Of a stretch of DNA of 15,700 nucleotides, positions 412 through 14,894 are shown in pieces. Within the stretch, counting starts at the first letter, position 1. Every line of letters begins with the position of its first letter. Origin of the DNA: Candidatus Hermodarchaeota archaeon (GTDB lineage Archaea > Asgardarchaeota > Lokiarchaeia > Sigyniarchaeales > SOKP01). The notes beneath the pieces were generated by a model. The model worked only from the letters and a program-made list of their open reading frames with translations, was not told the origin of the DNA and made no database searches. The stretch is taken from contig JBHLLO010000060.1 of NCBI GenBank assembly GCA_048885535.1, positions 3,251-18,950 of the forward strand, in the 5' to 3' direction. The position numbers and the translations under genes are program-made.

Positions 412-2307
412 ATGTCCACCCAAAACCATAATCAAGTTATCAGTATTACAGTCACTAAGTTTCCTCAGAATCTCTTAATTCCTGATGCTGATAATTTAAT
501 TTCGCTTCAGATATTAAGCCAATCTAAGAAGATTGAAACCTTTAAAATTGGTTTCGAGGGAGAAAATTTAGATGTAATTTTTGAGCCTAACGAGTTTAAT
601 AATGAAATTGAATTCAAACCAGGAGAGATTAAGGCAGTTAATTTAAAATTAAAACCGACTGGAGATGGTTATGGTAAATTAATTATTAATGCTTACTGGA
701 TGAAACTTGTCCAATATACTGTAAAAGTCCAAAAATTAAGAGAGTCAGTCTCCTCAAGTAATATTAAAAAAGTATTAGGGAGCCTGCAAGCTCTTGAGCC
801 TGATGCAGGGGATAAATTCAAAGCCAAAGACTACTTTGTTAACTCTCATAAAAATAACATAAAGAGTCTAGAAAAGGATATTAATTCTATGAAAGCTGAA
901 TATAAAGCTTATATTGAAAGCCAGTCCCAATCAGGACAAGCCATTTCTGCACTTATACCTCCAAAACCAGGAATCTCTCTTGAAAAAATTGACTCTCAAC
1001 TTGAAATCTTAGCAAAGCAATACTTGTCAATAAATGAATTTTATAAAGCTTTAGAAACGTCACTGCAACTATCTGATGAGAAAGAAAGGATTAAATTTTA
1101 TTATAATCTAATTAGGGCTTATGCCACAGTTGATTTAAACGCATGTTTAAATGTAATAAAGAGTATAGAAGACCATTTCAAAAAATTTGAAATTATTAAC
1201 AAATTGGTTTTGGATTTCGTAGATATAAATCGTGATGAAATAATCAAAATATTAAGTATTATTGAGGATCCATCAAAGAAAGAAGGTATAATAGCGAAAG
1301 TATTAGGAAATGTCATCAAAAAAGATCATCAATTAGCACTTAAATTTACGTATTTAATTGAGAATGAATTGTTAAAAGTTAAAGTGTTATTTGATGTGGC
1401 TAAAAAACTTAATGAAATTAAAAAAAAGGATGATATCTTAAAAATTATTAACCAAATTACTCAAATTTTAATTAATTCTTCCAAAATAAATTTCACTGAA
1501 AATAATTTTCAAAATGTTGTATACGACTATTTGAAGAATTCCATAACAATTTTAGCGGAATTAGACAGTCCTGAAGCTGCTGAAAAGATTATTAATATGA
1601 TACAAATTCAAAAGGTTAGAGAACATATTATAAAAGACTTATTTAATGTTATATATGAATTAGTAGATGAACTTAGGGAGAAAATTGATCCCACTCTAAT
1701 TTTTTCTCAGTTTTATTTATTGAATGTTTTTTCTTCTAAAGTTAGTGAAGAGGTTAAAGATTTTTCCCTATTAGGAGGGAATGTAAGCAGCAATCTTCTA
1801 TCAAGGGATTATAATTTTAAACTTGCTATTCTATCCTTATTTAACTATGATTTTAGTATTTTTCCAATTCTCGATAGAATTTATTCTGATTTGAAATTTA
1901 ATACACACAAATCTTTTGCATATTATGTCTTTCCATCCACTAAACAACATAATGAAAAGGAATTATCAGTCATGCAAACTACACTGCGACTATTTTTGCA
2001 GCCAAATAAAATTTCAAGTCAAATTATTTTGTTTAATTTAGACTTTATTCCTTATTTGGGAAAACCAACTATCATTCTTGCTTCCGATTCAGAGGATTTA
2101 AGTAATTTAAAATCTAGAATCCAAAAAAAACTGGGCAATAATGTGCAAGTTTTAATTGATGATTCGTTCTTTGAGGGTGGACAAACAGTCTCTAATCTGA
2201 ACAATATCTTTATGTCTCATCATTTCAAAGTAATTAATCTAATATTGTCATATGAATTTTTAAATGATTACAACTCATTTAGAAGTTTTATAGAAGCATT
2301 ATCGTAA
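412..2307 (+). CDS. Uncharacterised multidomain protein: N-terminal Ig-like beta-sandwich, central alpha-solenoid (TPR/HEAT-like), C-terminal degenerate FGase/Zn-exopeptidase-like alpha/beta domain
   Basis: 631-aa ORF with no signal peptide. Residues ~10-105 are beta-rich with an Ig-type KPGEIKAVNLKLKPTGDGYGKLII pattern. Residues ~190-420 are repeated amphipathic helix pairs. The C-terminal ILFNLDFIP..PTIILA...VLIDDSFFEGGQTV...VINLILS resembles FGase strand order. The CDS is solid; the domain calls are inference. Confidence 0.6.
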   Translation: MSTQNHNQVISITVTKFPQNLLIPDADNLISLQILSQSKKIETFKIGFEGENLDVIFEPNEFNNEIEFKPGEIKAVNLKLKPTGDGYGKLIINAYWMKLVQYTVKVQKLRESVSSSNIKKVLGSLQALEPDAGDKFKAKDYFVNSHKNNIKSLEKDINSMKAEYKAYIESQSQSGQAISALIPPKPGISLEKIDSQLEILAKQYLSINEFYKALETSLQLSDEKERIKFYYNLIRAYATVDLNACLNVIKSIEDHFKKFEIINKLVLDFVDINRDEIIKILSIIEDPSKKEGIIAKVLGNVIKKDHQLALKFTYLIENELLKVKVLFDVAKKLNEIKKKDDILKIINQITQILINSSKINFTENNFQNVVYDYLKNSITILAELDSPEAAEKIINMIQIQKVREHIIKDLFNVIYELVDELREKIDPTLIFSQFYLLNVFSSKVSEEVKDFSLLGGNVSSNLLSRDYNFKLAILSLFNYDFSIFPILDRIYSDLKFNTHKSFAYYVFPSTKQHNEKELSVMQTTLRLFLQPNKISSQIILFNLDFIPYLGKPTIILASDSEDLSNLKSRIQKKLGNNVQVLIDDSFFEGGQTVSNLNNIFMSHHFKVINLILSYEFLNDYNSFRSFIEALS

Positions 2308-2332
2308 TAACTGTAAATTTAAAGGGAATTCT

Positions 2333-4015
2333 ATGGCTAAGGATAAAAAAAAAGAAAAGAAAAAGAAGAAAGGAAAAAGTAAAGGAGGGAGTGATACCTT
2401 TGGTGCCTTTATGGGCTCTGGAAAAGCAAAAAGTAAAAAAGTATCTGGTATCACATCAGGTATATCTATTGGAAATCAGATAGATAGATCCCATGATCAG
2501 CTGTTCCTTGGGACAGATTATCGTGAGGTTTATATTCCAGAAAGAACATGGGGGGAAATCTTATGGGATATAGAGCACTGGACACCATTACCATTTACTC
2601 ATGGTATTGAAATGGAACTAATAATAGCAGATGACCAAGGAAATTACCCGCCTGGAGACGAGATGGTTTTTCGGATGAAAGAAATTGTAAAGGATGCAAT
2701 AAGAATAATGGATCAAATCCTTTATGAAGGCAGAGATGATTTCTATCCAGTCCCAGATTATATTCGCTCAAAAGTCACGGCACGTCCATATGGTCGCGAG
2801 GATTTAGAAAAAGGATATGCTATGGATATAAGATATCGATTACCGGATGGTAACGAAGTAGATATTGATACATTTGCGAGAGATGGAAATGTTACGGCAG
2901 TTACTTACATCCTAGAGTTAGTTACACCCCCTTGTGAATATGTAGAAGAATTAGCATATTGGGCTTCTACTCTCTTTTTATTAGCTAAGACAACTTTACC
3001 CAATGATCTACATATTATAGCATCAGCCATAAATCCTGCTGCACAGGAATATATGCGCGGGTTAAGCCAAGCTGATCATTCACACATTGGATCTTTCCAA
3101 TCAGATGTCGAAAAAGTTCAAGCATATTGCATGATAAGGAATTTTATTCCTCATATTATCGCACTCACTTGCAACTCGCCGATCATAAATAACAAACCAA
3201 CTGATGTTGTGAAAATTCTTAACAACAGGATCACAGCTCCGAATTGTGTACGTTCCCTAAGATTAAAATATAACACTACAATGTTAAGTAATAATGATCC
3301 CAAACATTTCATTCCATACATTACCTCATCCGATCAGGATACAATCAATTACTTTCTAGGAATAATCCAGAAAGCAAGTTTAGAAGATGGTAGATTTCAA
3401 GATGTATTTCCTTTTACTGATTGGGGAACTATTGAGGTGAGAATTAGTGATGCTCAAATATCAATTTGTAGGAGGATTGGTATGGTTATGCTTCTTCAAG
3501 CTATGTGTTATAAAGCAAGAAAATTACTCCAAAAAGGTGTTTGGGTGCCTGACGCAGGTTCAGAAACAATAGCTTTAAACCGTAAAGGAGCGATAGAACG
3601 AGGTCTGATTTCACTTTTCCGCCCTGCGCAAAATTTGACGAGAGACCATCTTGCACAATATGATCCTAAATTCGCTGAGCAATATTTAGGACCAGAAAAT
3701 CAACCTATTAGGTATATGATGCAAGCTGTCCAACGTATGTTATTTTACTTAAAAGATGAGTTGAAAGAATTAGGTTTCCTTTATTCGCCGTTTTTAAAGC
3801 CAATACTTCAATCTGTTTTTGGAAGTGTAAGTTATGCAGAACCTCCAATTACAGAAGCAGAATATCAATTATCCTTATATGATTATAAGTTGAGAAATGG
3901 GGAAAATCCAAGTATTTTGTGGGATTTAATTTATTTTACAATCCAATATTGTCAAGACCCTTTAAATAATCCATTAACTGGAGTCTTGACACTTCCTAAA
4001 GAAATGAGGGATTAA
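2333..4015 (+). CDS. Glutamate-cysteine ligase family 2 (GCS2/YbdK-like) carboxylate-amine ligase with Lys-rich N-terminal extension
   Basis: Glutamine synthetase-fold motifs in the expected order: FTHGIEMELII (ExE), ILELVTPPC, DHSHIG (HxH), IPHIIALTCNSP, RSLR, and QDVFPFTDWGTIEVRISD (compare YbdK-type DIRP...GTVEVRVMD). Confidence 0.88.
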   Translation: MAKDKKKEKKKKKGKSKGGSDTFGAFMGSGKAKSKKVSGITSGISIGNQIDRSHDQLFLGTDYREVYIPERTWGEILWDIEHWTPLPFTHGIEMELIIADDQGNYPPGDEMVFRMKEIVKDAIRIMDQILYEGRDDFYPVPDYIRSKVTARPYGREDLEKGYAMDIRYRLPDGNEVDIDTFARDGNVTAVTYILELVTPPCEYVEELAYWASTLFLLAKTTLPNDLHIIASAINPAAQEYMRGLSQADHSHIGSFQSDVEKVQAYCMIRNFIPHIIALTCNSPIINNKPTDVVKILNNRITAPNCVRSLRLKYNTTMLSNNDPKHFIPYITSSDQDTINYFLGIIQKASLEDGRFQDVFPFTDWGTIEVRISDAQISICRRIGMVMLLQAMCYKARKLLQKGVWVPDAGSETIALNRKGAIERGLISLFRPAQNLTRDHLAQYDPKFAEQYLGPENQPIRYMMQAVQRMLFYLKDELKELGFLYSPFLKPILQSVFGSVSYAEPPITEAEYQLSLYDYKLRNGENPSILWDLIYFTIQYCQDPLNNPLTGVLTLPKEMRD

Positions 4016-4017
4016 TA

Positions 4018-5550
4018 ATGCTAACTGCTACAATTGAACAAGATGGGAAAAAGCGAATAGAACAAATATTTGTAATCGATGCGCATTCTCATTTAGGTGA
4101 AGATGTGGACGGTGCAACAATGATGAATCCCTTAGCTCCAGGAACAGGAACTTTTGATTTTTGGGGCAATGTCCAAGGTCGTGTTACTTCTGACTGGGAA
4201 AAAACTGGTGAACAATCATTTAGAACAACTATGGAAGGAAGATCTACACGAATAACCTGGTCATTCACTCCATATCCGTTTACTGATAAATTATATACAG
4301 TTTTACAAAAACTAGGAAAAAGATATTCCGATTTAAAAGAGAAAGCTAAATTCTATTCATTTATAGATCAGGGAGTTGTATTTCCTTTTCAAGATGTATT
4401 CAGAGATAAGCATCCCGAAGCATTATACCGAGCGAGTAATATCAATGTATCTCGATTTACAACGCGATTTCCATTTTCCATGAAGCTGATTGGTTATGGA
4501 CGAGTAGATCCTATGGAAGGTGATAAAGCTGTAAAAGAAGTGAGTTATGCACGTGAAGTTTTAGGTTTAAGAGGTTTAAAACTACATCCTCGTTCAGAAA
4601 GATGGATTGATGATATAAAGTCAGGGAAAGCGGTTAATGTTCTTGTTGAGGCTGCTAGTCAATCGATGCCAGTGATTTTTGATACGAGAGGAAGAGGTTC
4701 AATATTAGATATCGCTGAATTAGTAAAATCAACAAGAGGGGTCATTAAACAACAATTTCCAGAGCTACTACCTCATTTTAAAGTAATTATAGCACATTTT
4801 GCGCAAGGGAATATCGGTGACCATGAAGTATATAATGCTATCGTTCAGCCAAATACGTACGGTGATTTATCAATGCTACATGGAGAGGGCGCAGGCAATT
4901 TTTTTGAAGATTTTCGGCGATGGTTTAAATCCCATAACAAATATACTGTAGATAATAAAGATTGGTCAGAATACTTACTTTACGCCTCAGATTATCCATA
5001 TTTTGGAGAAGTTCATGCTCAGAAATTAATAAAGTACATTATAAATAAACAGTTCTTTGATACTGGAGGAAGTATTCAAGATGTAAAAAACATACTTGGA
5101 TTAAATCAAATAAGATTGCTTCCAGAATATAATATCCCATTTAAAAAAGATGGAAAATCATTACCTAGTACAATTATTTCAGGGGCATCAGACCATAATT
5201 CCTATGAAATGACATTGAAAGCCCTAGCAAAATTGATTTTAGAAAATAAAATTGATATCAAATCATTTTGCATTCAATTCAAACAAACGTGGGAAAAATT
5301 TAATGATGATATATTATTAAATGTTGTTAATCTTTCCACAAAAGAAGGCTTTCCATTAATATTAACAAATCTAGTAAAGAATGAGCTTTCTCTTGTTGCT
5401 CCTTTAAATAAAGGTATGCAATGGAATAAGTTCGGCTATAAATTTTTTAATCCAAAAGATCGCTTATTTTTTGCTTCTGCATTTAAACATAATTTTTTAG
5501 CTACTAATGAGACTCAAGTGCAGAATTGTATTGCCCAAATTTTTAAATAA
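4018..5550 (+). CDS. Amidohydrolase_2-family TIM-barrel metallohydrolase with an extra ~140-aa C-terminal domain
   Basis: Motifs VIDAHSHLG (HxH), GYGRVDP, GLRGLKLHP, IIAHF, YGDLS, LLYASDYPY and ILGLN. It starts 2 nt after the ligase stop codon. Confidence 0.88.
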   Translation: MLTATIEQDGKKRIEQIFVIDAHSHLGEDVDGATMMNPLAPGTGTFDFWGNVQGRVTSDWEKTGEQSFRTTMEGRSTRITWSFTPYPFTDKLYTVLQKLGKRYSDLKEKAKFYSFIDQGVVFPFQDVFRDKHPEALYRASNINVSRFTTRFPFSMKLIGYGRVDPMEGDKAVKEVSYAREVLGLRGLKLHPRSERWIDDIKSGKAVNVLVEAASQSMPVIFDTRGRGSILDIAELVKSTRGVIKQQFPELLPHFKVIIAHFAQGNIGDHEVYNAIVQPNTYGDLSMLHGEGAGNFFEDFRRWFKSHNKYTVDNKDWSEYLLYASDYPYFGEVHAQKLIKYIINKQFFDTGGSIQDVKNILGLNQIRLLPEYNIPFKKDGKSLPSTIISGASDHNSYEMTLKALAKLILENKIDIKSFCIQFKQTWEKFNDDILLNVVNLSTKEGFPLILTNLVKNELSLVAPLNKGMQWNKFGYKFFNPKDRLFFASAFKHNFLATNETQVQNCIAQIFK

Positions 5551-5763: not shown

Positions 5764-6984
5764 TTGAAGGGAATTATGATTTTGGCATTTGATGATGATT
5801 ACAAAGCATATATTGATACTCAATTTCCTTCAAATTTAGATGAATTTTTGGGGATTTCACAAGATACTCTTTCATATCTGGAAAATGAACATATGCAAAA
5901 AAAAATGGAACCAAATTATCTTGAATTAATTCTTGAAAATGAATTAAATGTAGTAAGTTTCTATACAGGATTTTCATTTCGTCATTATGTTGGGAAACCA
6001 AATTATGCAATTACTATTTTCTTATCTGATAATGACAACCCGTCTGATGATTTTGAAGGCATGATAAGACGAATAGCCCATGAGTTATTACCAAAAAGAG
6101 AAGCTCTTAATTTTGATGATATCTTTGGAAGATATTATGAAATGCTAAAGAATGAAGAATTAACACCATTTTGGGAAGAAGTCATTGAGGGAGAAACTAG
6201 TAAAGTATTTACTAAGGAGAAGGAAGAAGAATCTACTGAGAAAGAAGAAAAGGAAAGTCTTAATGATGAAATGAAGGAAGAAGAAAAAAAGATTAATGTT
6301 GATATGGAATTAATGAATCAATTTGAGGAGATTAAAGAAAAAAATCAGGAATTGGAGGATCTTCTCGAAGAAAAAACAAAAAAGATCAGGGATCTAACTA
6401 ATAAATATACTGAGTTAATGGAGGAGAAAAATACTATTAATGGAGAAGTTGAATCGTTAAAAGCCGAAGTTAGTGAGCAATATATTAAGTTAGAGGAATG
6501 GAGTCAGCAGATGGCTGATTTAAATGAAAATAATGCAAAATTACTAGAAGAAATTAAAGAGTTTAATGATAAAATTAGTCTAAAAGAGGATGAAATTCAG
6601 GTAAAGGATGAAAAGATACGAGAAATTAATCAAAAACTAGAATCAGCAAAAGGACTTGAAAAGGAAGCAGAAAAATTTCTACAAGAAAGAGATAATTTGA
6701 AAAGGATTAATTTAAGTTTGAATACCCAAATAGGAAGGTTAGATAATGAAATTAAAAAAATGAAGGAAGAAATTGAAAAGTCAAAGCATGAGAATACAGT
6801 TCATATAGATTCAATTACCAATTTAAAATTCGAAATAAAAAACCTAAAAGACAAATTTAACTTAGAAACCAAAGAAAAAGAAAATTTAAAAAACGAAATA
6901 TTTGATCTCAAAAAAGAGATTAAAGTTTTAAGAAGAGAAAGAGATCATTATCTAAAAATCGTAAAAGATAATGATTTACTCTAA
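5764..6984 (+). CDS. Longin/uDENN-like N-terminal domain + acidic linker + long coiled coil
   Basis: N-terminus GIMILAFDDDYKAYIDTQFP...NVVSFYTG...YAITIFLSDNDNP..FEGMIRRIAHELL fits the uDENN/longin beta-beta-alpha-beta-beta-beta-alpha pattern. Residues ~175-400 are E/K-rich heptads. No TM segment is visible. Confidence 0.7.
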   Translation: MKGIMILAFDDDYKAYIDTQFPSNLDEFLGISQDTLSYLENEHMQKKMEPNYLELILENELNVVSFYTGFSFRHYVGKPNYAITIFLSDNDNPSDDFEGMIRRIAHELLPKREALNFDDIFGRYYEMLKNEELTPFWEEVIEGETSKVFTKEKEEESTEKEEKESLNDEMKEEEKKINVDMELMNQFEEIKEKNQELEDLLEEKTKKIRDLTNKYTELMEEKNTINGEVESLKAEVSEQYIKLEEWSQQMADLNENNAKLLEEIKEFNDKISLKEDEIQVKDEKIREINQKLESAKGLEKEAEKFLQERDNLKRINLSLNTQIGRLDNEIKKMKEEIEKSKHENTVHIDSITNLKFEIKNLKDKFNLETKEKENLKNEIFDLKKEIKVLRRERDHYLKIVKDNDLL

Positions 6985-7031: not shown

Positions 7032-7463
7032 TTAATTTGATTCTAATATTTCCATCATTAAATCTATGATGTTTTGTAGGGTAAATAAATAAAACATCGA
7101 TCCGATAACCTTAATTTTATTCTGAACTGATGCGCTAGGAGCATCAAGTTTCCCTCTGAATAATTTCAATAAAGTTGATTCAGAAATAGTTAGTTGAACA
7201 TCTGGAGATTCAATATCGCCATGACCATAATACATCATACTATTTTCTACTTTTATCCAGAAATTAAATATTTGTTTTCCTGAAGGTGGTTTACCGTAAT
7301 TCTTAGACCATGTGATAAATTGGATTGCTTGATTCGAATTTTCCAACTCTTCAACAATATCGGGTTCACTATTTACTATTTTTACAAATAATTTCAAGTA
7401 ATTGTCAAAATTTGAAATTGTTAATTTTTTTTTTAACTGATTTAACAATTCATAATCACTCAT
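7032..7463 (-). CDS. SCP2 sterol/lipid-binding domain protein
   Basis: C-terminal PDVQLTISESTLLKLFRGKLDAPSASVQNKIKVIGSM matches the SCP2 signature PDxTLTxxxxxxxxLxxGxLxxxxAxxxGKLKxxGD, somewhat degenerate. Confidence 0.85.
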   Translation of the reverse strand: MSDYELLNQLKKKLTISNFDNYLKLFVKIVNSEPDIVEELENSNQAIQFITWSKNYGKPPSGKQIFNFWIKVENSMMYYGHGDIESPDVQLTISESTLLKLFRGKLDAPSASVQNKIKVIGSMFYLFTLQNIIDLMMEILESN

Positions 7464-7534: not shown

Positions 7535-7990
7535 TTAATCGGGAGTGAGCTCATCCAAATCGCTCAAATCCAGTCCTGAATCTAAAGTATCGGGAATATC
7601 TGACAAGAATTCGTCTAAAATCTCCTTCAACTCGTCACCGGAGCGCTTTAAGATTAGTCTGATCAACCCAATGTTGATATCTGGGTCTGAAATTAGAGTT
7701 AGGACTCCTTTTGGGCCACAGCTTGAGGCAAATATCTTTCCTCCTGAAAACTCACTTGTAACTATTTCTAAATCTCCTAATTCAAGATTTTTTCCTTGTT
7801 CTTCCGAAGCACAGAAAACAGCACTAGCAATTGCGCCTATTCCATCAACATCAGCAGGAAAGTAGCTAAATTTTGATACACTTGCGATGGTTAAACCTGT
7901 TCTATCAACCAAAATAACTTTTTTAATCCCACTTTCTGACTTTATAATTTTGCTTAAGATGTTATCAAAACTTTTAGTGTCTAAGCTAAT
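7535..7990 (-). CDS. Roadblock/LC7 (MglB/LAMTOR-like) domain protein with acidic C-terminal tail; probable start extended to ATT at 7990
   Basis: VILVDRTGLTIAS...DGIGAIASAVF..SEEQGKNLELGDLEIVTSEFSGGKIFASSCGPKGVLTLISDPDINIGLIRLILKR is a typical Roadblock core. The frame stays open 26 codons upstream of TTG 7912 (ISLDTKSFDNILSKIIKSESGIKKVI), supplying helix 1. The exact start is uncertain. Confidence 0.9.
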   Translation of the reverse strand: MSLDTKSFDNILSKIIKSESGIKKVILVDRTGLTIASVSKFSYFPADVDGIGAIASAVFCASEEQGKNLELGDLEIVTSEFSGGKIFASSCGPKGVLTLISDPDINIGLIRLILKRSGDELKEILDEFLSDIPDTLDSGLDLSDLDELTPD

Positions 7991-9163: not shown

Positions 9164-12100
9164 GTGATATTGCATATTAAAAAAAGGATAAAAGGGATTT
9201 TAGTTCTATCGATTTTACTTATAAATTTCTTCCTAATTACTTTTCCAAATAATGTTAATATAAATCAAAATATCAAAGGTAATGAAAATAAATATAATAA
9301 TAATGAAGATTTAAAACATGAAAATTTAAAAACTGAAGATGTTGCTTTTGATAATACTTTCACAGGTACAGGAGCCCCTTGGGATGTGACTCATTATGCT
9401 AATTATACAAAATCAAATTTAGCAGTTAGTTTTAATAATAATTCTTTCGATGATACTCACGCAAAAGTTGAATTATACGGATGGAATGGATATCAATTAA
9501 ATTCAACGATAAAAGATTTGTATGATACACGAAATTGGATTAATGGAACATTTCATGCTGGTTCATTTGTGGGAGGTTCTCCAGCCGGATCTAACGATAG
9601 CGATTACATTGATGGATGGACGTTTAAAACAGGAGATGTTCAAGGATATACTAATCCTATGAGCGGGAATTATTTTGATGGTTCAACTTCTATATCTGAT
9701 TATGAAGATTGTTTAGAATTAAGGGTGGATGACTATTCAACCGGTTATTATGATGTTGGTGATAGATGCTGGTGGGAAACAAATATTCAATTAGATAGAG
9801 GGGACGTAGATAAAGCATGGTTAAGTTTTGCAGTATTTCCGAAATATAGTGATGGTTATAATAACCACTGGGTACTCCAAGTTATTATCAATGGTAAACT
9901 CATTTGGGGCAATGGACTTCAATCAATGATAGATGCCTCCGGTAATTCTAATGGTCAATGGTATAACCCATATCCTATTTATCTAGATGGCAATGATGAA
10001 CAAATATTTCCTACAGGAGTTAAAGATCTAAATATTACTTTAGAATTTAAAAGGGTTAGTGGAACTGCTCCAGGTGGTTATGCTGGTTACTATACTGTAC
10101 TCTTTGATAATGTTTCGTTAATAGTGAAATCGAAAGCGAAACCAAGCCAACTACAGTTGCAATTAAATGGTGAAAATGTGCATGATAAAGCCAATTATGG
10201 TGAAGGTAACCTTGGCATAATTGGTAATTGGGATGGAAGTCTCCAATCATCCGTAATTGCTAATTTTAGTAGTGATGCGAATTGGCCTTATACTTATCAA
10301 GATGATGGAAATTGGAATAGCTATAAAGTTGAATTTAGTACAAATTTGAATTTATATACAACTAAATCTACCCCTGAAAGTTATTATAGAGCGGATCCTG
10401 ATTTAAGTTATCAAGGCTCATCTTTTATCGTATCTAATAATAGTAATGTGAATTGGACAACATATGCACATATGGAAATTCCAACGGGATATGAAGAGAC
10501 GAATATGACTGTTGAATATCCTTCAGATTTTGATTTGACAGGAGTATATTTCTCTCTAAATCCTAATTCACTTTCTGAAACTTTTATAAAAAAAATTGGA
10601 AATAAAAAAGTAGTAAATGTACCAGTAAGTTCTATAACAAGCAACACAAATGGATTTTGGAGGTTTGTGGCAGTATCACCTAATTATTGCTTAGAAATGG
10701 ATATGTATAGTAATATTACAGGCAATTGGGAGCTAAAAAGTAGTTTCTTTAGTGGAGAATATATAAATATTACAGCGAGAATAAATAATACTCAACTGAT
10801 CTCTGGATATATTCAACAAACAAAAGCCCAACTTCAGATAAAATTTCCAAATGGTACAATTTGGACAAGAGAAAATCAATTAAAGCAAGTTAATAATGTT
10901 GGTATGGTTTATTTTGATCCTATTATGATACCTTCTGATAAACCAAATTACGAAGTCGGTAATTATAATGCAATAATTACGTGGAATAATTCATATTCCA
11001 GCTTTAATTTAAACGAAACGGGTATTATTTACAAATCTTTTACTGTTAACCATAATTCTTCATTAGTTCCTGATGAATTTTATTATCCAGATATATTTGA
11101 GGGGGAAACAGTAAACCTAAAGGTCTCATTTTACGATCTAAGAAATAATAAACCGATAGAGGATGCAAATATTTATTTAATAAACTTTACCGAGGGAATT
11201 CAATATTTTAATGAGATAAATCCAGGATATTATTTACTTATCTTTAACACAACTGGAGGTAATCCTGGAGATAATGATCTAACGATTTATGGTTCTCATC
11301 CATCTTATCAGAATAATAAAGTTAATATAACTATTGAAGTAATTGCCTATACTAAACTTACTGCTGAAGAATATCCCAATATAGAAGTCCCTTGGAATAA
11401 TAATTTTACCATACATCTTAATTATACAGTTAGATCAGATAACTCTGGTATTGAGAATGCTAATCCTACTGTTTACTGGAATGATGAAATATCGATAAAA
11501 TCAGGAAACGGACTTTATAATATAACGTGTAGTACATCAAAATATCAAGTAAATACTGCTCCTAATTTAAGAATTGAGTTTAATGAGATAGGATACGAGT
11601 CTCAAACAATGATAATATCTATTGAAATAGTTGAACGAGAAACATATATCGATAATATTTTTATAAATGATGCTGATTGTTCGATTAATAAATCTTATAA
11701 CGTACATGCTGGGGATATTCTAAACATTACTATTAAATATAAAGATAATGATGCAGGAGGAAGTTTTATTCATGATGCTATAGTCACATTAAATGGGACT
11801 AGTATTGGAGAAATATTTACAGATAATAATAATTTTTATAATCTTACTTTAAATACATCAAAACTTAGTATTGGAATAATATTTTTAAATATAATTGCTC
11901 AGAAAAAGAATTATACATCAGTTACAGAGTTATTAACTATAAATGTATTTGAGAGGGAGACAGATTATTGGTTATATTTAAATGGACTGATTCAAGGGAA
12001 AAATCCCTCTATAAAGTTATATAGAGATCAATTTTTAAATATCACTCTTACTTATAATGATACTACTTTAAAAGAACATATTTCTGGTGCCATTGTGGAT

Positions 12101-13774
12101 ATAAATGGTTCAGGAATATCGGAGCTTCTCAATGAAGCTTATAATAATTATTCAGTGCTTATTGATACAAATGATTTAAACCAAGGTGTAAACTTTTTAA
12201 CTATTTTCGCTCGAAAAAGTGGTTATGAAGCCCATTCAATTTTACTCGTAATAGAGATTATCCAAATAGAGACAGATTTAACATTATTTATAGATGGAGC
12301 GGAACAACCATTAAATCCATCTATTACACGATATCCAAATGAAATCATCAATGCTACCGTTTCGTATGATACATCTATTCCAGTAAGTCATATTTCTGGT
12401 GCCACTGTAGATATAAATGGTTCAGGAGTATCGGAGCTTCTCACTGAAGCATATAATAATTATTCAGTGCTTATCGATACAAATGATTTAAATCAAGGTG
12501 CGAACTTTTTAACTATTTTTGCTCGAAAAAGTGGTTATGAACCTCAGACGATTTTGCTAGTAATTGAAATTATCCAATTAGAGACAGATTTAACATTATT
12601 TATAGATGGAGCGGAACAACCATTAAATCCATCTATTACACGATATCCAAATGAGATCATCAATGTTACTGCTTCGTATGATACATCTATTCCAGTAAGT
12701 CATATTTCTGGTGCCATTGTAGATATAAATGGTTCAGGAGTATCGGAGCTTCTTACTGAAGCTTATAATAATTATTCAGTGCTTATAAATACAATTGATT
12801 TAAATCAAGGTGTAAACTTTTTGACGATTTTTGCTCGAAAAAGTGGTTATGAACCTCATTCGATTCTACTTATAATACAGATTGTCCAAATAAAAACAGA
12901 TATACAGATATTTTTAAATGATTATAATAAAACTCTTGATCCCGTTTTTAATCTTACGATAGGTCAAGATTTAAATTTAACTATTAAGTATACCGACCAA
13001 ACGGGAGCGTTTATTCCAAATGCAACAATAACTTTAATTGGAGAAGGAAAATTATGGCAATTAGGAAAAGATAGTACATTCCAACAATATTATATAATAC
13101 TTAATACAACAGAATTAGGTACTGGAGGAAAATTATTTTCAATTATAGCCCAAAAGTCTAATTTTGAGGCGATAACAAAAGATTTATATATAACAATAAA
13201 TAGAATTGCAGCGCAAATAAGTACATTATCAGGAGAAACGCAAATAGAGGCTGAAATCGGGGATAATGTATTATTGCAAATAATCCTAAATGATCCTATA
13301 TTCAGTGCTAATATAACAGGAGCAACGGTAACATATAAGTGGGCTTATGGCCAAGGAGAACTTTTTGATTCTGATAATAACGGTATCTTTGAAGTTGTAT
13401 TATATAATGTACCAGAAGGGGTTCATACTATAACTATAAATGCTATAGCTGGGGAGGAATACGATTTCAAAAGCTATCAAATTACACTAATCGTAATGCC
13501 CTCTGGAGGGATTGCAGATTTAACATGGCTTATATATATCTTAGGAGGAGGAATTGTTGGTATGGTTACTATTTTTACATTATATCAAAAACATTTTAAA
13601 TATCCTCCTATGGTACGTAAAATAAGAAAGCTGAGGAAGAAGGTGAGAAAAGAAAAGAAATTGAAAAAAGTATTATTAAATGAACGAGAAGCAATTGTAA
13701 ATGATCAAATTCAAGATAAACTACAAATTTTAGATTTAGAAAAAAATATAGGAAAAATGATGAAAGATGCCTAA
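9164..13774 (+). CDS. Large membrane-anchored cell-surface glycoprotein with tandem Ig-like domains
   Basis: It has a basic + hydrophobic N-terminus (KKRIKGILVLSILLINFFLITF), a beta-rich body with dozens of N-x-S/T sequons, ~100-aa Ig-like repeats, a C-terminal TM (LTWLIYILGGGIVGMVTIFTLY) and a basic cytoplasmic tail (KYPPMVRKIRKLRKKVRK). The start could be GTG 9164 or TTG 9170. Confidence 0.88.
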   Translation: MILHIKKRIKGILVLSILLINFFLITFPNNVNINQNIKGNENKYNNNEDLKHENLKTEDVAFDNTFTGTGAPWDVTHYANYTKSNLAVSFNNNSFDDTHAKVELYGWNGYQLNSTIKDLYDTRNWINGTFHAGSFVGGSPAGSNDSDYIDGWTFKTGDVQGYTNPMSGNYFDGSTSISDYEDCLELRVDDYSTGYYDVGDRCWWETNIQLDRGDVDKAWLSFAVFPKYSDGYNNHWVLQVIINGKLIWGNGLQSMIDASGNSNGQWYNPYPIYLDGNDEQIFPTGVKDLNITLEFKRVSGTAPGGYAGYYTVLFDNVSLIVKSKAKPSQLQLQLNGENVHDKANYGEGNLGIIGNWDGSLQSSVIANFSSDANWPYTYQDDGNWNSYKVEFSTNLNLYTTKSTPESYYRADPDLSYQGSSFIVSNNSNVNWTTYAHMEIPTGYEETNMTVEYPSDFDLTGVYFSLNPNSLSETFIKKIGNKKVVNVPVSSITSNTNGFWRFVAVSPNYCLEMDMYSNITGNWELKSSFFSGEYINITARINNTQLISGYIQQTKAQLQIKFPNGTIWTRENQLKQVNNVGMVYFDPIMIPSDKPNYEVGNYNAIITWNNSYSSFNLNETGIIYKSFTVNHNSSLVPDEFYYPDIFEGETVNLKVSFYDLRNNKPIEDANIYLINFTEGIQYFNEINPGYYLLIFNTTGGNPGDNDLTIYGSHPSYQNNKVNITIEVIAYTKLTAEEYPNIEVPWNNNFTIHLNYTVRSDNSGIENANPTVYWNDEISIKSGNGLYNITCSTSKYQVNTAPNLRIEFNEIGYESQTMIISIEIVERETYIDNIFINDADCSINKSYNVHAGDILNITIKYKDNDAGGSFIHDAIVTLNGTSIGEIFTDNNNFYNLTLNTSKLSIGIIFLNIIAQKKNYTSVTELLTINVFERETDYWLYLNGLIQGKNPSIKLYRDQFLNITLTYNDTTLKEHISGAIVDINGSGISELLNEAYNNYSVLIDTNDLNQGVNFLTIFARKSGYEAHSILLVIEIIQIETDLTLFIDGAEQPLNPSITRYPNEIINATVSYDTSIPVSHISGATVDINGSGVSELLTEAYNNYSVLIDTNDLNQGANFLTIFARKSGYEPQTILLVIEIIQLETDLTLFIDGAEQPLNPSITRYPNEIINVTASYDTSIPVSHISGAIVDINGSGVSELLTEAYNNYSVLINTIDLNQGVNFLTIFARKSGYEPHSILLIIQIVQIKTDIQIFLNDYNKTLDPVFNLTIGQDLNLTIKYTDQTGAFIPNATITLIGEGKLWQLGKDSTFQQYYIILNTTELGTGGKLFSIIAQKSNFEAITKDLYITINRIAAQISTLSGETQIEAEIGDNVLLQIILNDPIFSANITGATVTYKWAYGQGELFDSDNNGIFEVVLYNVPEGVHTITINAIAGEEYDFKSYQITLIVMPSGGIADLTWLIYILGGGIVGMVTIFTLYQKHFKYPPMVRKIRKLRKKVRKEKKLKKVLLNEREAIVNDQIQDKLQILDLEKNIGKMMKDA
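11957..12901 (+). repeat. Intragenic tandem repeat, 312-bp (104-aa) period, ~3 copies
   Basis: GAGACAGAT occurs at 11957, 12269 and 12581, with AAAACAGAT at 12893. CATATTTCTGGTGCC occurs at 12077, 12389 and 12701. DNA is near-identical from 12077 to ~12860. Confidence 0.97.
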
Positions 13775-14894
13775 AGGGTTTGTAATAACTAAATGGACAG
13801 AAGATCGAGGTTTAATTATAGAATTTAGTTATCCAGAAGATTTATTGGTAAACTTAGATGACATGATGAGAATTTTTTATGCACATATTACAGGTGCAGC
13901 ACAAGCAGGGAGTGTTTTAGTAAGATTAGAAAAAGCACGTTCGAACGTATCGAGTTACTTTACAGGTATGGAGGCACATGCAGCATTCATGGTAAATTTA
14001 ATGCTGGAATTAGATGAAGACCCTGAATTGTTTGGTGAAACCGTAATTTCTGAAATCAACAATAATATTTTAAGACTTTTAAATGCTAAAGTTGAAAATC
14101 CTGGACGAAGCTATGAAATTAATGAAGAATTAAGAGATTATATAAAAAATTCACTATTTCTTTTAGTACGCCTTAAAAACCTTAGCAAGGAGCAGAGAAT
14201 GGCTCAAATCTACACAAGTGAAAAAGGAAGGAAAATTTTAGAAAGCTTACAGGAAAAAGCATATTCTCGAAGAGAACTTAGAGAGGTATTAGAAGAAAAA
14301 CTAGAACGATCAATATATAACCTTGAAATAACTTTAGATCCATTTGTAAAAACAGATATAATTAGACAAGATTGGATTAAAGGAGATCAAGACATAACTT
14401 TATTTCTTCTATCTGATTTCACGATAATGCGACAACCAGCGGAGAAAGTGGTTAATGAAGCAAAAGACAATTTACCTACACCATATTTAGCTCAGAAATA
14501 TTTAGAGCGTGTAAAAAATTTCTTTACTTCATATAAACCTACGTTTGAAGATAATTTAAAAATAGCATATAATATGACTAATCCAGATAAGTATGATTTC
14601 ATCACACTTTTTAGAGAAAAATCTTACCCCATTAATAAAATACCAAAAAGCCCAGGTGAAACTTTCGATGAAGTAAAAGAGTTTCTATATTTATTAGAAA
14701 AAGACAATATCATTTCTATAATAAAAGATAGCAAAGGTTTAGAGTGGATATTCTTATTAACTGACGTTGTAGCTCATACTTTTTATCCAGAATATATGAT
14801 TGAAAATATTCGTAAAAATGTGACGGAGAAAAAGTTAAAGAAAAACATTGCTATTAAACATTTAGAACTGCTTGAACAAGTATATAAAAAGTAA
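13767..14894 (+). CDS. Longin/uDENN-like domain + two winged-helix domains (NPRL2-like architecture)
   Basis: N-terminus KGFVITKWTEDRGLIIEFSYP...NVSSYFTG...FMVNLMLELDEDP parallels the 5764 ORF. Two wHTH-like units follow (KGRKILESLQEKAYSRRELREVL...LDPFVKTDII; DKYDFITLFREKSYPINKI...EFLYLLEKDNII), each ending in FLL(S/T)D. It overlaps the upstream gene by 8 nt. Confidence 0.7.
   Translation: MPKGFVITKWTEDRGLIIEFSYPEDLLVNLDDMMRIFYAHITGAAQAGSVLVRLEKARSNVSSYFTGMEAHAAFMVNLMLELDEDPELFGETVISEINNNILRLLNAKVENPGRSYEINEELRDYIKNSLFLLVRLKNLSKEQRMAQIYTSEKGRKILESLQEKAYSRRELREVLEEKLERSIYNLEITLDPFVKTDIIRQDWIKGDQDITLFLLSDFTIMRQPAEKVVNEAKDNLPTPYLAQKYLERVKNFFTSYKPTFEDNLKIAYNMTNPDKYDFITLFREKSYPINKIPKSPGETFDEVKEFLYLLEKDNIISIIKDSKGLEWIFLLTDVVAHTFYPEYMIENIRKNVTEKKLKKNIAIKHLELLEQVYKK

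Follow-up and report, generated by a model that had tools for sequence, protein, structure and literature searches.

A co-inherited ligase, partner protein and metal hydrolase of Asgard archaea with a possible role in reversible amide modification

What might a divergent carboxylate-amine ligase, a metal-dependent hydrolase and a large protein of no recognized family do together in one compact archaeal gene cluster? The question is raised by a 15,700-nt stretch from Candidatus Hermodarchaeota archaeon (assembly GCA_048885535.1, contig JBHLLO010000060.1; G000:C60:3251-18950, hereafter the window), whose genome comprises 3.09 Mb in 112 contigs and is 91.6% complete. Here, three plus-strand open reading frames (ORFs), denoted g1, g2 and g3 (Table 1), follow one another. 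A preliminary description, made from the DNA letters alone, had proposed a writer-eraser-scaffold operon for glutamyl tagging, formed by three co-oriented genes spaced only 25 nt and 2 nt apart. The ORF listing reproduces the orientation and both gaps (2308-2332 and 4016-4017) and corrects the order given in the title of that proposal (ligase, amidohydrolase, solenoid protein): the actual order is scaffold (g1), ligase (g2), hydrolase (g3). Together with a Shine-Dalgarno-like GAGGG just 5' of the g3 ATG, oligo-T runs 3' of g3 and an AT-rich tract 5' of g1, this spacing fits a single transcription unit for the trio. The folds, intact catalytic residues, synteny, co-inheritance and gene fusions computed here lead us to a tentative answer, namely, that the trio is one layout of a wider Asgard module that might write and remove a modification, preferably on a macromolecular substrate.

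Conservation of the gene order among relatives had been set beforehand as a test of the tagging proposal, and we assessed it in the best 80 genome loci found among GTDB species genomes, each taken with 6-kb flanks. Where the flank leaves room for it (73 loci), a co-oriented g1 precedes g2 by no more than 500 nt in all but one (72/73), and in 70/71 loci g3 is found downstream of g2 within 6 kb, directly adjacent (<150 nt) in 45 of the 71. Recurring to this extent, the arrangement is far beyond chance; g1-g2 is thus a tight pair and g3 a loyal neighbor that is not strictly co-transcribed. Insertions concentrate at the g2-g3 junction (L045-L120), which is occupied in different loci by a CitMHS transporter, a pair of the B12-binding/URO-D-family methyltransferase type, an HEPN/NTase pair, a type II restriction-modification gene, GTPases or a histidine kinase. 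By their titles, 70 of the 80 loci belong to Promethearchaeota, Promethearchaeia, Hodarchaeota or Thorarchaeota, 9 to an 'uncultured archaeon' and one (L103) to a bacterium; the Asgard range rests on these titles (79/80), taxon names being almost absent for the more distant forms of the ligase.

Two of these loci stand apart. The contig with the bacterial title, that of a Nanopelagicaceae bacterium metagenome-assembled genome (MAG), holds the complete trio with a ligase of 82% identity and is probably mis-binned or mislabelled. The single exception among the 73 loci (L114) is a complete MAG chromosome in which the ligase match starts only at query residue 135 and the preceding 6 kb yielded no g1; a rearrangement or gene disruption could explain it.

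Is g2 a functional ligase? The protein scores 18.4 bits against the Pfam family GCS2 (PF04107), under the 21-bit gathering cut-off, which relatives at 33-40% identity exceed (21.4-39.1 bits); its match to TIGR02050 has an E-value of 5.2e-10, yet reaches 39 bits against a cut-off of 176. Used alone as the query, g2 matches Escherichia coli YbdK (1r8g) with E 0.0075, whereas a profile of 28 family members matches 1r8g with E 1.1e-15 and Salmonella 1tt4 with E 1.4e-14, in three aligned blocks. The GhExE signature, given in PMC2588565 as a mark of carboxylate-amine ligases, is present as G91-I-E93-M-E95; in the family alignments, G91 and E93 are kept in at least 90% of the sequences, and E95, E195, H251, R310, E368 and R370 are invariant. 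A Pfam scan at E<=0.01 yields GCS2 alone, with no PafA and no glutamine-synthetase (GS) family match on g2, and YbdK is the closest family. Shared with YbdK/GCS2 are the GS-fold core and the GhExE, H-x-H-x-G, R and E-x-R motifs. In contrast to the ~370 aa of those enzymes, g2 is 560 aa long, carries a lysine-rich N-terminal arm (15 K, 11 G and 8 S in 85 residues) as well as insertions, and belongs to a separate clade. According to the alignment, this arm occurs in the ligase forms of families f1 (that of the window) and f2 and is missing from the immunoglobulin (Ig)-tailed forms described below. The g2 family is small, with only 140 clusters (50% identity, E<=1e-3) among 1.84 billion representatives, and g2 is the sole GCS2-like gene in its genome. 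We read g2, from these sequence features, as an active, very divergent YbdK-type ATP-dependent carboxylate-amine ligase.

The third gene follows the same pattern. Against Amidohydro_2 (PF04909), g3 scores 18.5 bits, under the gathering cut-off of 26.4, and its orthologues in other families score 38.2-68.1 bits, with the exceptions of L032 (19.6 bits) and L029 (no match). Across 21 sequences of the g3 family, down to 22% identity, D21, H23, H25, H190, D222, H260 and D325 never vary, and the metal-ligand set is complete: HxH (H23, H25) on strand 1, two later His (H190 and H260), and an Asp (D325) on strand 8. The AlphaFold2 (AF2) model (predicted local distance difference test, pLDDT, 86.1; predicted template modelling score 0.89) consists of a TIM barrel, with a beta-rich insertion after its first strand, and a C-terminal alpha+beta domain. 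Sequence searches against the PDB gave only marginal or irrelevant matches, with E 0.041 to solved members. Structure comparison is far clearer, with VIA Z scores of 21.7 for CAC3332 (3cjp), 21.5 for LigJ (2gwg), 20.9 for LigY (5vn5), 20.0-20.1 for LigW (4icm/4inf) and about 20 for ACMSD (2wm1); Foldseek matches IDCase (4hk5) and LigW with E ~1e-7. With all of these enzymes g3 has the TIM barrel and the HxH/H/H/D ligands in common, and it differs from them by the extra 125-aa C-terminal domain and the beta-rich insertion. Thus, g3 looks like a catalytically competent mononuclear-metal TIM-barrel enzyme. For both enzymes, the family labels are sub-threshold when the proteins are taken singly and are confirmed because profiles, orthologues and folds agree, so that the GCS2-type ligase and the amidohydrolase originally named both stand.

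The first gene has no Pfam or NCBIfam match, and the short partner proteins found in other families (see below) likewise have no Pfam match at E<=1; at the sequence level, g1 has 222 homologues at E<=1e-3. Its AF2 model (mean pLDDT 85.2) contains an N-terminal beta-sandwich, a solenoid of 13 helices and an alpha/beta domain (residues 446-630). The sandwich matches the CEP192 SPD-2 domain, transglutaminase barrels and MG-type sandwiches with middling VIA Z scores of 8-9.3. The solenoid resembles repeat proteins (VIA Z 8-12.4), and the family profile matches the alpha-solenoid protein TON_1535 (3zpj) with E 3.6e-4. For the C-terminal domain (residues 453-631), the best non-helical VIA match is the FGase-family structure 2odf (Z 10.5, root-mean-square deviation (rmsd) 3.2, 163 residues aligned), followed by N-formylglutamate amidohydrolase 2q7s (Z 9.2), YndL 5onj (Z 8.9) and PghP 3a9l (Z 8.2), and the ESM Atlas lead (0.90) is a cluster with FGase on 22% of its members. 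The same domain is homologous to a short ORF located 5' of the ligase elsewhere (hhalign A1 vs A5, 81% probability, E 1.2e-5, 168 columns).

Does this domain retain activity? The enzymes of that fold, N-formylglutamate amidohydrolase and the poly-gamma-glutamate (PGA) hydrolases, recognize glutamyl amides. The g1 domain differs from them in having no sequence membership of FGase (PF05013) or Gamma_PGA_hydro (PF05908), either in Pfam or when the domain profile is compared with the PDB, in lacking the full metal-ligand set and in its placement behind a sandwich and a solenoid. His513 is a histidine in 18/38 long forms and in 0/7 short forms, and no other His is conserved. The persisting features are E517 (35/38 long and 5/7 short forms), D583 (34/38 and 6/7) and an F-x-G-G motif. 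Measured against conserved His and Glu residues, which we take to be the metal-ligand set of the FGase/Gamma_PGA_hydro group, neither a conserved His nor the full set is found across the 38 long and 7 short forms. For this reason, and given its position behind the sandwich and solenoid, the domain is likely a non-catalytic, binding pseudo-enzyme. The initial picture of an Ig/solenoid protein with a glutamyl-amide-hydrolase-like fold is, accordingly, upheld as regards the folds, and its non-catalytic character is only likely.

A different identity for g1, as a homologue of alpha-2-macroglobulin or of complement C4/C5, tops the Foldseek list with E ~1e-7 and was rejected: the template modelling score is 0.12 at an rmsd of 26-40 A, the VIA match has Z 8.0 at an rmsd of 19, and the family has no conserved Cys. 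We read the likeness as one of domain order (a sandwich, then a helical domain), not of homology. Comparison by hhalign showed no match of g1 to the VWA protein introduced below, to the Ig tail of fused ligases (2% probability) or to a 1239-aa ligase fusion, and none between the short partner and the N-terminal extension of the protein P0397.

Are the three genes the whole system? A survey of 201 sampled genomes of the phylum, representing 27 families, indicates that they are not, a point missed by the preliminary description. The ligase was detected in 99 genomes, the hydrolase in 99 (E<=1e-25), a protein combining CDC48N and VWA domains also in 99 (E<=1e-40) and the g1-type domain in 85, counts that are not independent, the genomes being mutually related. 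Ligase, hydrolase and CDC48N-VWA protein share the same 9 of the 27 families and occur in 0/88 genomes of the other 18. Ligase and hydrolase are both present in 96 of the 201 genomes, each is found without the other in 3, and 99 genomes have neither; in families f8 and f19 the copy numbers match, with two of each. This co-inheritance across Asgard families extends the positional conservation found in the synteny test.

Outside f1 and f2, the layout is different. There, the ligase, 33-40% identical to g2, forms the first ~470 residues of ORFs of 980-1400 aa, the tails of which, on visual inspection of the sequence, resemble a series of beta-sandwich (Ig-like) repeats; of the 44 genomes with a partner match, 38 have a partner ORF of 214-263 aa no more than 80 nt ahead of the ligase; and the hydrolase and VWA genes form an adjacent pair near the ligase (9-13 kb from it in f7). 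In one f22 locus (L029), the hydrolase gene shares 4 nt with the start of the ligase gene. In the protein P0408 (962 aa), the ligase is fused to a full CDC48N-VWA protein (hhalign 99.8%, E 8.7e-28), and in giant proteins of 2700-3800 aa (P0402, P0404, P0403, P0424) the ligase is located near the C-terminus, two of them having HhH domains and the remainder of their length matching no Pfam family. Such fusions to Ig-like-looking tails, the VWA protein or giants set the kin of g2 apart from YbdK. In the genome of the window, contig C27 carries the VWA homologue, a 724-aa ORF whose N-terminal half is not hydrolase-like, and in another genome of the same family (G144) the homologue lies 10 kb from the trio. 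The trio is, therefore, the f1 layout, that of one Lokiarchaeia-type family, of a module consisting of ligase, small partner, metal hydrolase and CDC48N-VWA protein. We read the f1 lineage as having a ligase without an Ig tail, a partner that grew a sandwich and a solenoid, and a hydrolase that moved beside the ligase.

Several further genes accompany the module. ORFs of about 870-890 aa face the hydrolase-VWA pair in f7 and f26 (L122 14134-16770, L121 10840-13461, L125 6493-9108, L123 2891-5563). The one in L122 (f7, 878 aa) begins with a copy of the hydrolase (97.4%, E 1.5e-11) devoid of the metal ligands (HxH changed to H-I-E, SDYPY to SSYPE) and also matches the VWA profile; it has the look of a defunct fusion of copies of its hydrolase and VWA neighbors. 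A Roadblock/LC7 gene directly precedes the VWA gene of the module both in the genome of the window (C27; L040 10953-11342) and in G144 (L124 7030-7422), and the two genes may be linked. An f26 locus (L030 3462-5879) holds, immediately 5' of the partner-ligase pair, an 805-aa ORF whose C-terminal domain is of the EAP30/Vps36 (ESCRT-II) type (E 3.1e-19).

What would such an assembly do? The best explanation, to which we assign somewhat less than an even chance, is a write-and-remove modification system, with a macromolecular substrate preferred. By analogy with YbdK, GCS2 and PafA, g2 would phosphorylate a carboxylate, most plausibly of the glutamate type, and join it to an amine. As an obligate non-catalytic partner of g2, g1 would hold the glutamyl-type moiety or product in its FGase/gamma-PGA-hydrolase-like domain and recruit a large substrate through its solenoid and Ig-like sandwich, and g3 would remove or process the ligase product or a precursor. 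We infer a protein or peptide as the substrate, glutamate as the acyl donor and reversal of g2 by g3. The Ig-like-looking tails, the CDC48N-VWA fusion and the HhH-bearing giants hint at a large substrate; docking-type domains and fusions together favor a macromolecular one, and this is why a write-and-remove modification system is preferred.

Several points weigh against this reading. No substrate, tag gene, acceptor or acyl donor turned up: at the locus, neither a tag-like gene nor a small conserved ORF was noticed, and there was no match to Pup (PF05639) anywhere in this 91.6% complete genome. As the family names and the account in PMC2588565 have it, characterized YbdK/GCS2 enzymes use free amino acids. 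Pairs of an amidohydrolase and a GS-fold ligase are known from small-molecule gamma-glutamylation, FluG being an example described in PMC6478659. The nearest solved relatives of g3 are decarboxylases (LigW, IDCase, ACMSD), a hydratase (LigJ), a C-C hydrolase (LigY), lactonases and uncharacterized proteins, with no amidases among them. The g2 and g3 proteins of the trio itself fall under the Pfam cut-offs, and the VWA gene lies outside the window, on another contig. Finally, unrelated genes, mostly on the opposite strand, stand between g2 and g3 in 25 of the 70 loci that have g3; therefore, co-transcription of g2 and g3 is not obligatory.

Could the module instead belong to a small-molecule pathway? 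We regard such a pathway as a serious competitor of the preferred reading, although on balance unlikely. The ligase would gamma-glutamylate or amidate a metabolite (an amine, a polyamine or an amino acid), the Amidohydro_2 enzyme would catalyze a neighboring step (hydrolysis, decarboxylation or hydration), as in FluG, SCO6961/6962 or PuuA, and g1 would be a regulatory or channelling subunit. The top fold matches of g3 are indeed metabolite enzymes, a FluG-like hydrolase (2qpx) matches it with Z 16.0, and the amino acid substrates of the known YbdK/GCS2 members (PMC2588565) point the same way, as does FluG, in which a TIM-barrel amidohydrolase is joined to a GS-like gamma-glutamyl ligase and for which, in the account of PMC6478659, a glutamylated metabolite is the presumed substrate. 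Such a pathway does not account well for a ligase repeatedly fused to Ig-like-looking tails, CDC48N-VWA and HhH-containing giants, or for the retention, next to that ligase, of a pseudo-enzyme that includes a solenoid and a sandwich. Docking modules of these kinds (solenoid, sandwich, Ig-like and VWA types) are, to our knowledge, unusual for metabolite enzymes.

Two other explanations, both of which match the co-inheritance poorly, appear highly improbable to us. Were g2 the gamma-glutamylcysteine ligase of the organism, as GshA is in haloarchaea, and its neighbors incidental, the weak matches to NCBIfam glutamate-cysteine ligase models (E 7e-7 to 0.075), the status of g2 as the only GCS2-like gene of the genome and the GshA-family matches in Asgard archaea recorded in a review (PMC7278568) would be explained; however, the scores are far under the family cut-offs (e.g., 39 vs 176 bits), the ligase occurs in only 9 of the 27 sampled Asgard families, there in the company of the hydrolase, partner and VWA gene, and Ig-tail and VWA fusions would be senseless for a thiol synthase. 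Alternatively, g1 and g2 could be a functional pair with g3 an unrelated neighbor, kept close by chance or shared regulation only, as the heterogeneous genes parting g2 from g3 in 25/70 loci and the distance of 9-13 kb in f7 might suggest, but this is countered by the presence of g3 within 6 kb in 70/71 loci, the 4-nt overlap in f22, the identical family distribution, the matched copy numbers and the 96 genomes with both genes against 3 + 3 with one and 99 with neither.

How does the preferred write-and-remove system relate to those already described? In line with the initial impression, literature searches found no system of this composition; among the papers listed by full-text searches, none described such an Asgard system, though the family may figure, undescribed, among the orthologous groups in supplementary tables of Asgard comparative-genomics papers. 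The enzymes are members of known superfamilies, and their logic resembles PafA/Dop or FluG. In the Pup system of actinobacteria (PafA, Dop, Pup), a GCS2-derived GS-fold ligase makes an isopeptide bond, as outlined in PMC2588565. This pairing of a GS-fold ligase with a bond-breaking enzyme is the closest precedent for protein tagging, with the difference that the candidate eraser of the trio is a TIM-barrel Amidohydro_2 enzyme and that of Pup a paralogue of the ligase (Dop). In the FluG and SCO6961-SCO6962 systems, too, a TIM-barrel metal hydrolase and an amide ligase of GS fold are genetically coupled or fused, as presented in PMC6478659; their ligase is of the GlnA kind (type I GS), unlike the YbdK-like g2, FluG lacks partners of the scaffold, Ig or VWA kind, and its presumed substrate is a metabolite.

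A more specific version of the proposal, which we regard as rather doubtful, is a reversible protein- or polymer-amide-tagging machinery of the Asgard archaea's own, assembled from components that have no kinship with the enzymes of ubiquitin or Pup. The YbdK-type writer would put a glutamyl-type unit on target amines, the pseudo-FGase/solenoid/Ig partner would select and hold the target, the CDC48N-VWA protein would read or dock, and the Amidohydro_2 enzyme would erase. If true, this would be a functional archaeal analogue of glutamylation/deglutamylation or of pupylation and, if proteins are the molecules modified, a third independently evolved covalent tagging chemistry beside the ubiquitin-like systems and Pup. 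Should a metabolite be made instead, an Asgard-specific gamma-glutamyl-type compound would be defined. Four co-inherited components, gene fusions, a kept pseudo-enzyme partner and presence in about half of the sampled Asgard genomes mark a real molecular machine, not stray metabolism, and the three-gene layout offers smaller, more tractable proteins than the fused forms of 1100-1400 aa.

Table 1. Coordinates (window positions), strand and supporting evidence for the trio and the ORF that follows it.
Feature	Position	Strand	Evidence
g1, partner/scaffold protein, no Pfam family, 631 aa	412..2307	+	ORF; AF2 mean pLDDT 85.2; 222 homologues at E<=1e-3
g1 residues 10-109, Ig-like beta-sandwich; hairpin 415-439 (nt 1654-1728) packs on the sandwich	439..738	+	AF2 strands; VIA Z 8-9.3
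g1 residues 147-414, alpha-helical solenoid	850..1653	+	13 helices in AF2; TON_1535 profile match; VIA Z 8-12.4
g1 residues 446-630, FGase/poly-gamma-glutamate-hydrolase-like alpha/beta domain, probably non-catalytic	1747..2301	+	VIA, ESM Atlas, hhalign
g2, divergent YbdK/GCS2-type carboxylate-amine ligase, 560 aa	2333..4015	+	TIGR02050 E 5.2e-10; profile vs 1r8g E 1.1e-15
g2 residues 1-85, lysine/glycine-rich N-terminal arm	2333..2587	+	Composition 15 K, 11 G, 8 S
g2 GhExE signature, G91-I-E93-M-E95	2603..2617	+	Sequence; alignments
g3, Amidohydro_2 TIM-barrel metal enzyme, 510 aa; barrel ~17-372, C-terminal alpha+beta domain 384-507	4018..5550	+	Invariant ligands; AF2; VIA; Foldseek
Coiled-coil ORF directly after g3, 406 aa; module membership uncertain	5764..6984	+	SMC/Rad50-type matches far below cut-offs

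Beyond the trio, a Pfam scan of the 11 ORFs of the window found no glutathione synthetase, ergothioneine or Pup family, as the preliminary description had stated, and no proteasome or AAA genes. On another contig, one ATP-grasp ORF matches GSH-S_ATP at 59.7 bits, a model that also matches control archaea, e.g., M. jannaschii and Sulfolobus. The coiled-coil ORF after g3 has a tblastn match in 41 of the 80 related loci. Short coiled-coil ORFs flank the hydrolase in f19 and f26 as well, and the ORF after g3 shows no significant pairwise similarity to the coiled-coil neighbors of other families. An SCP2 gene (7032-7463, minus strand) and a Roadblock/LC7 gene (7535-7912, minus strand) are located a short way downstream of the trio. 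Farther along, a 1536-aa ORF (9164-13774, plus strand) shows a weak match to TcdB_toxin_midN (25.8 bits against a cut-off of 24.8) and one to CarboxypepD_reg below the cut-off, and it overlaps by 8 nt a 375-aa ORF of no family (13767-14894, plus strand).

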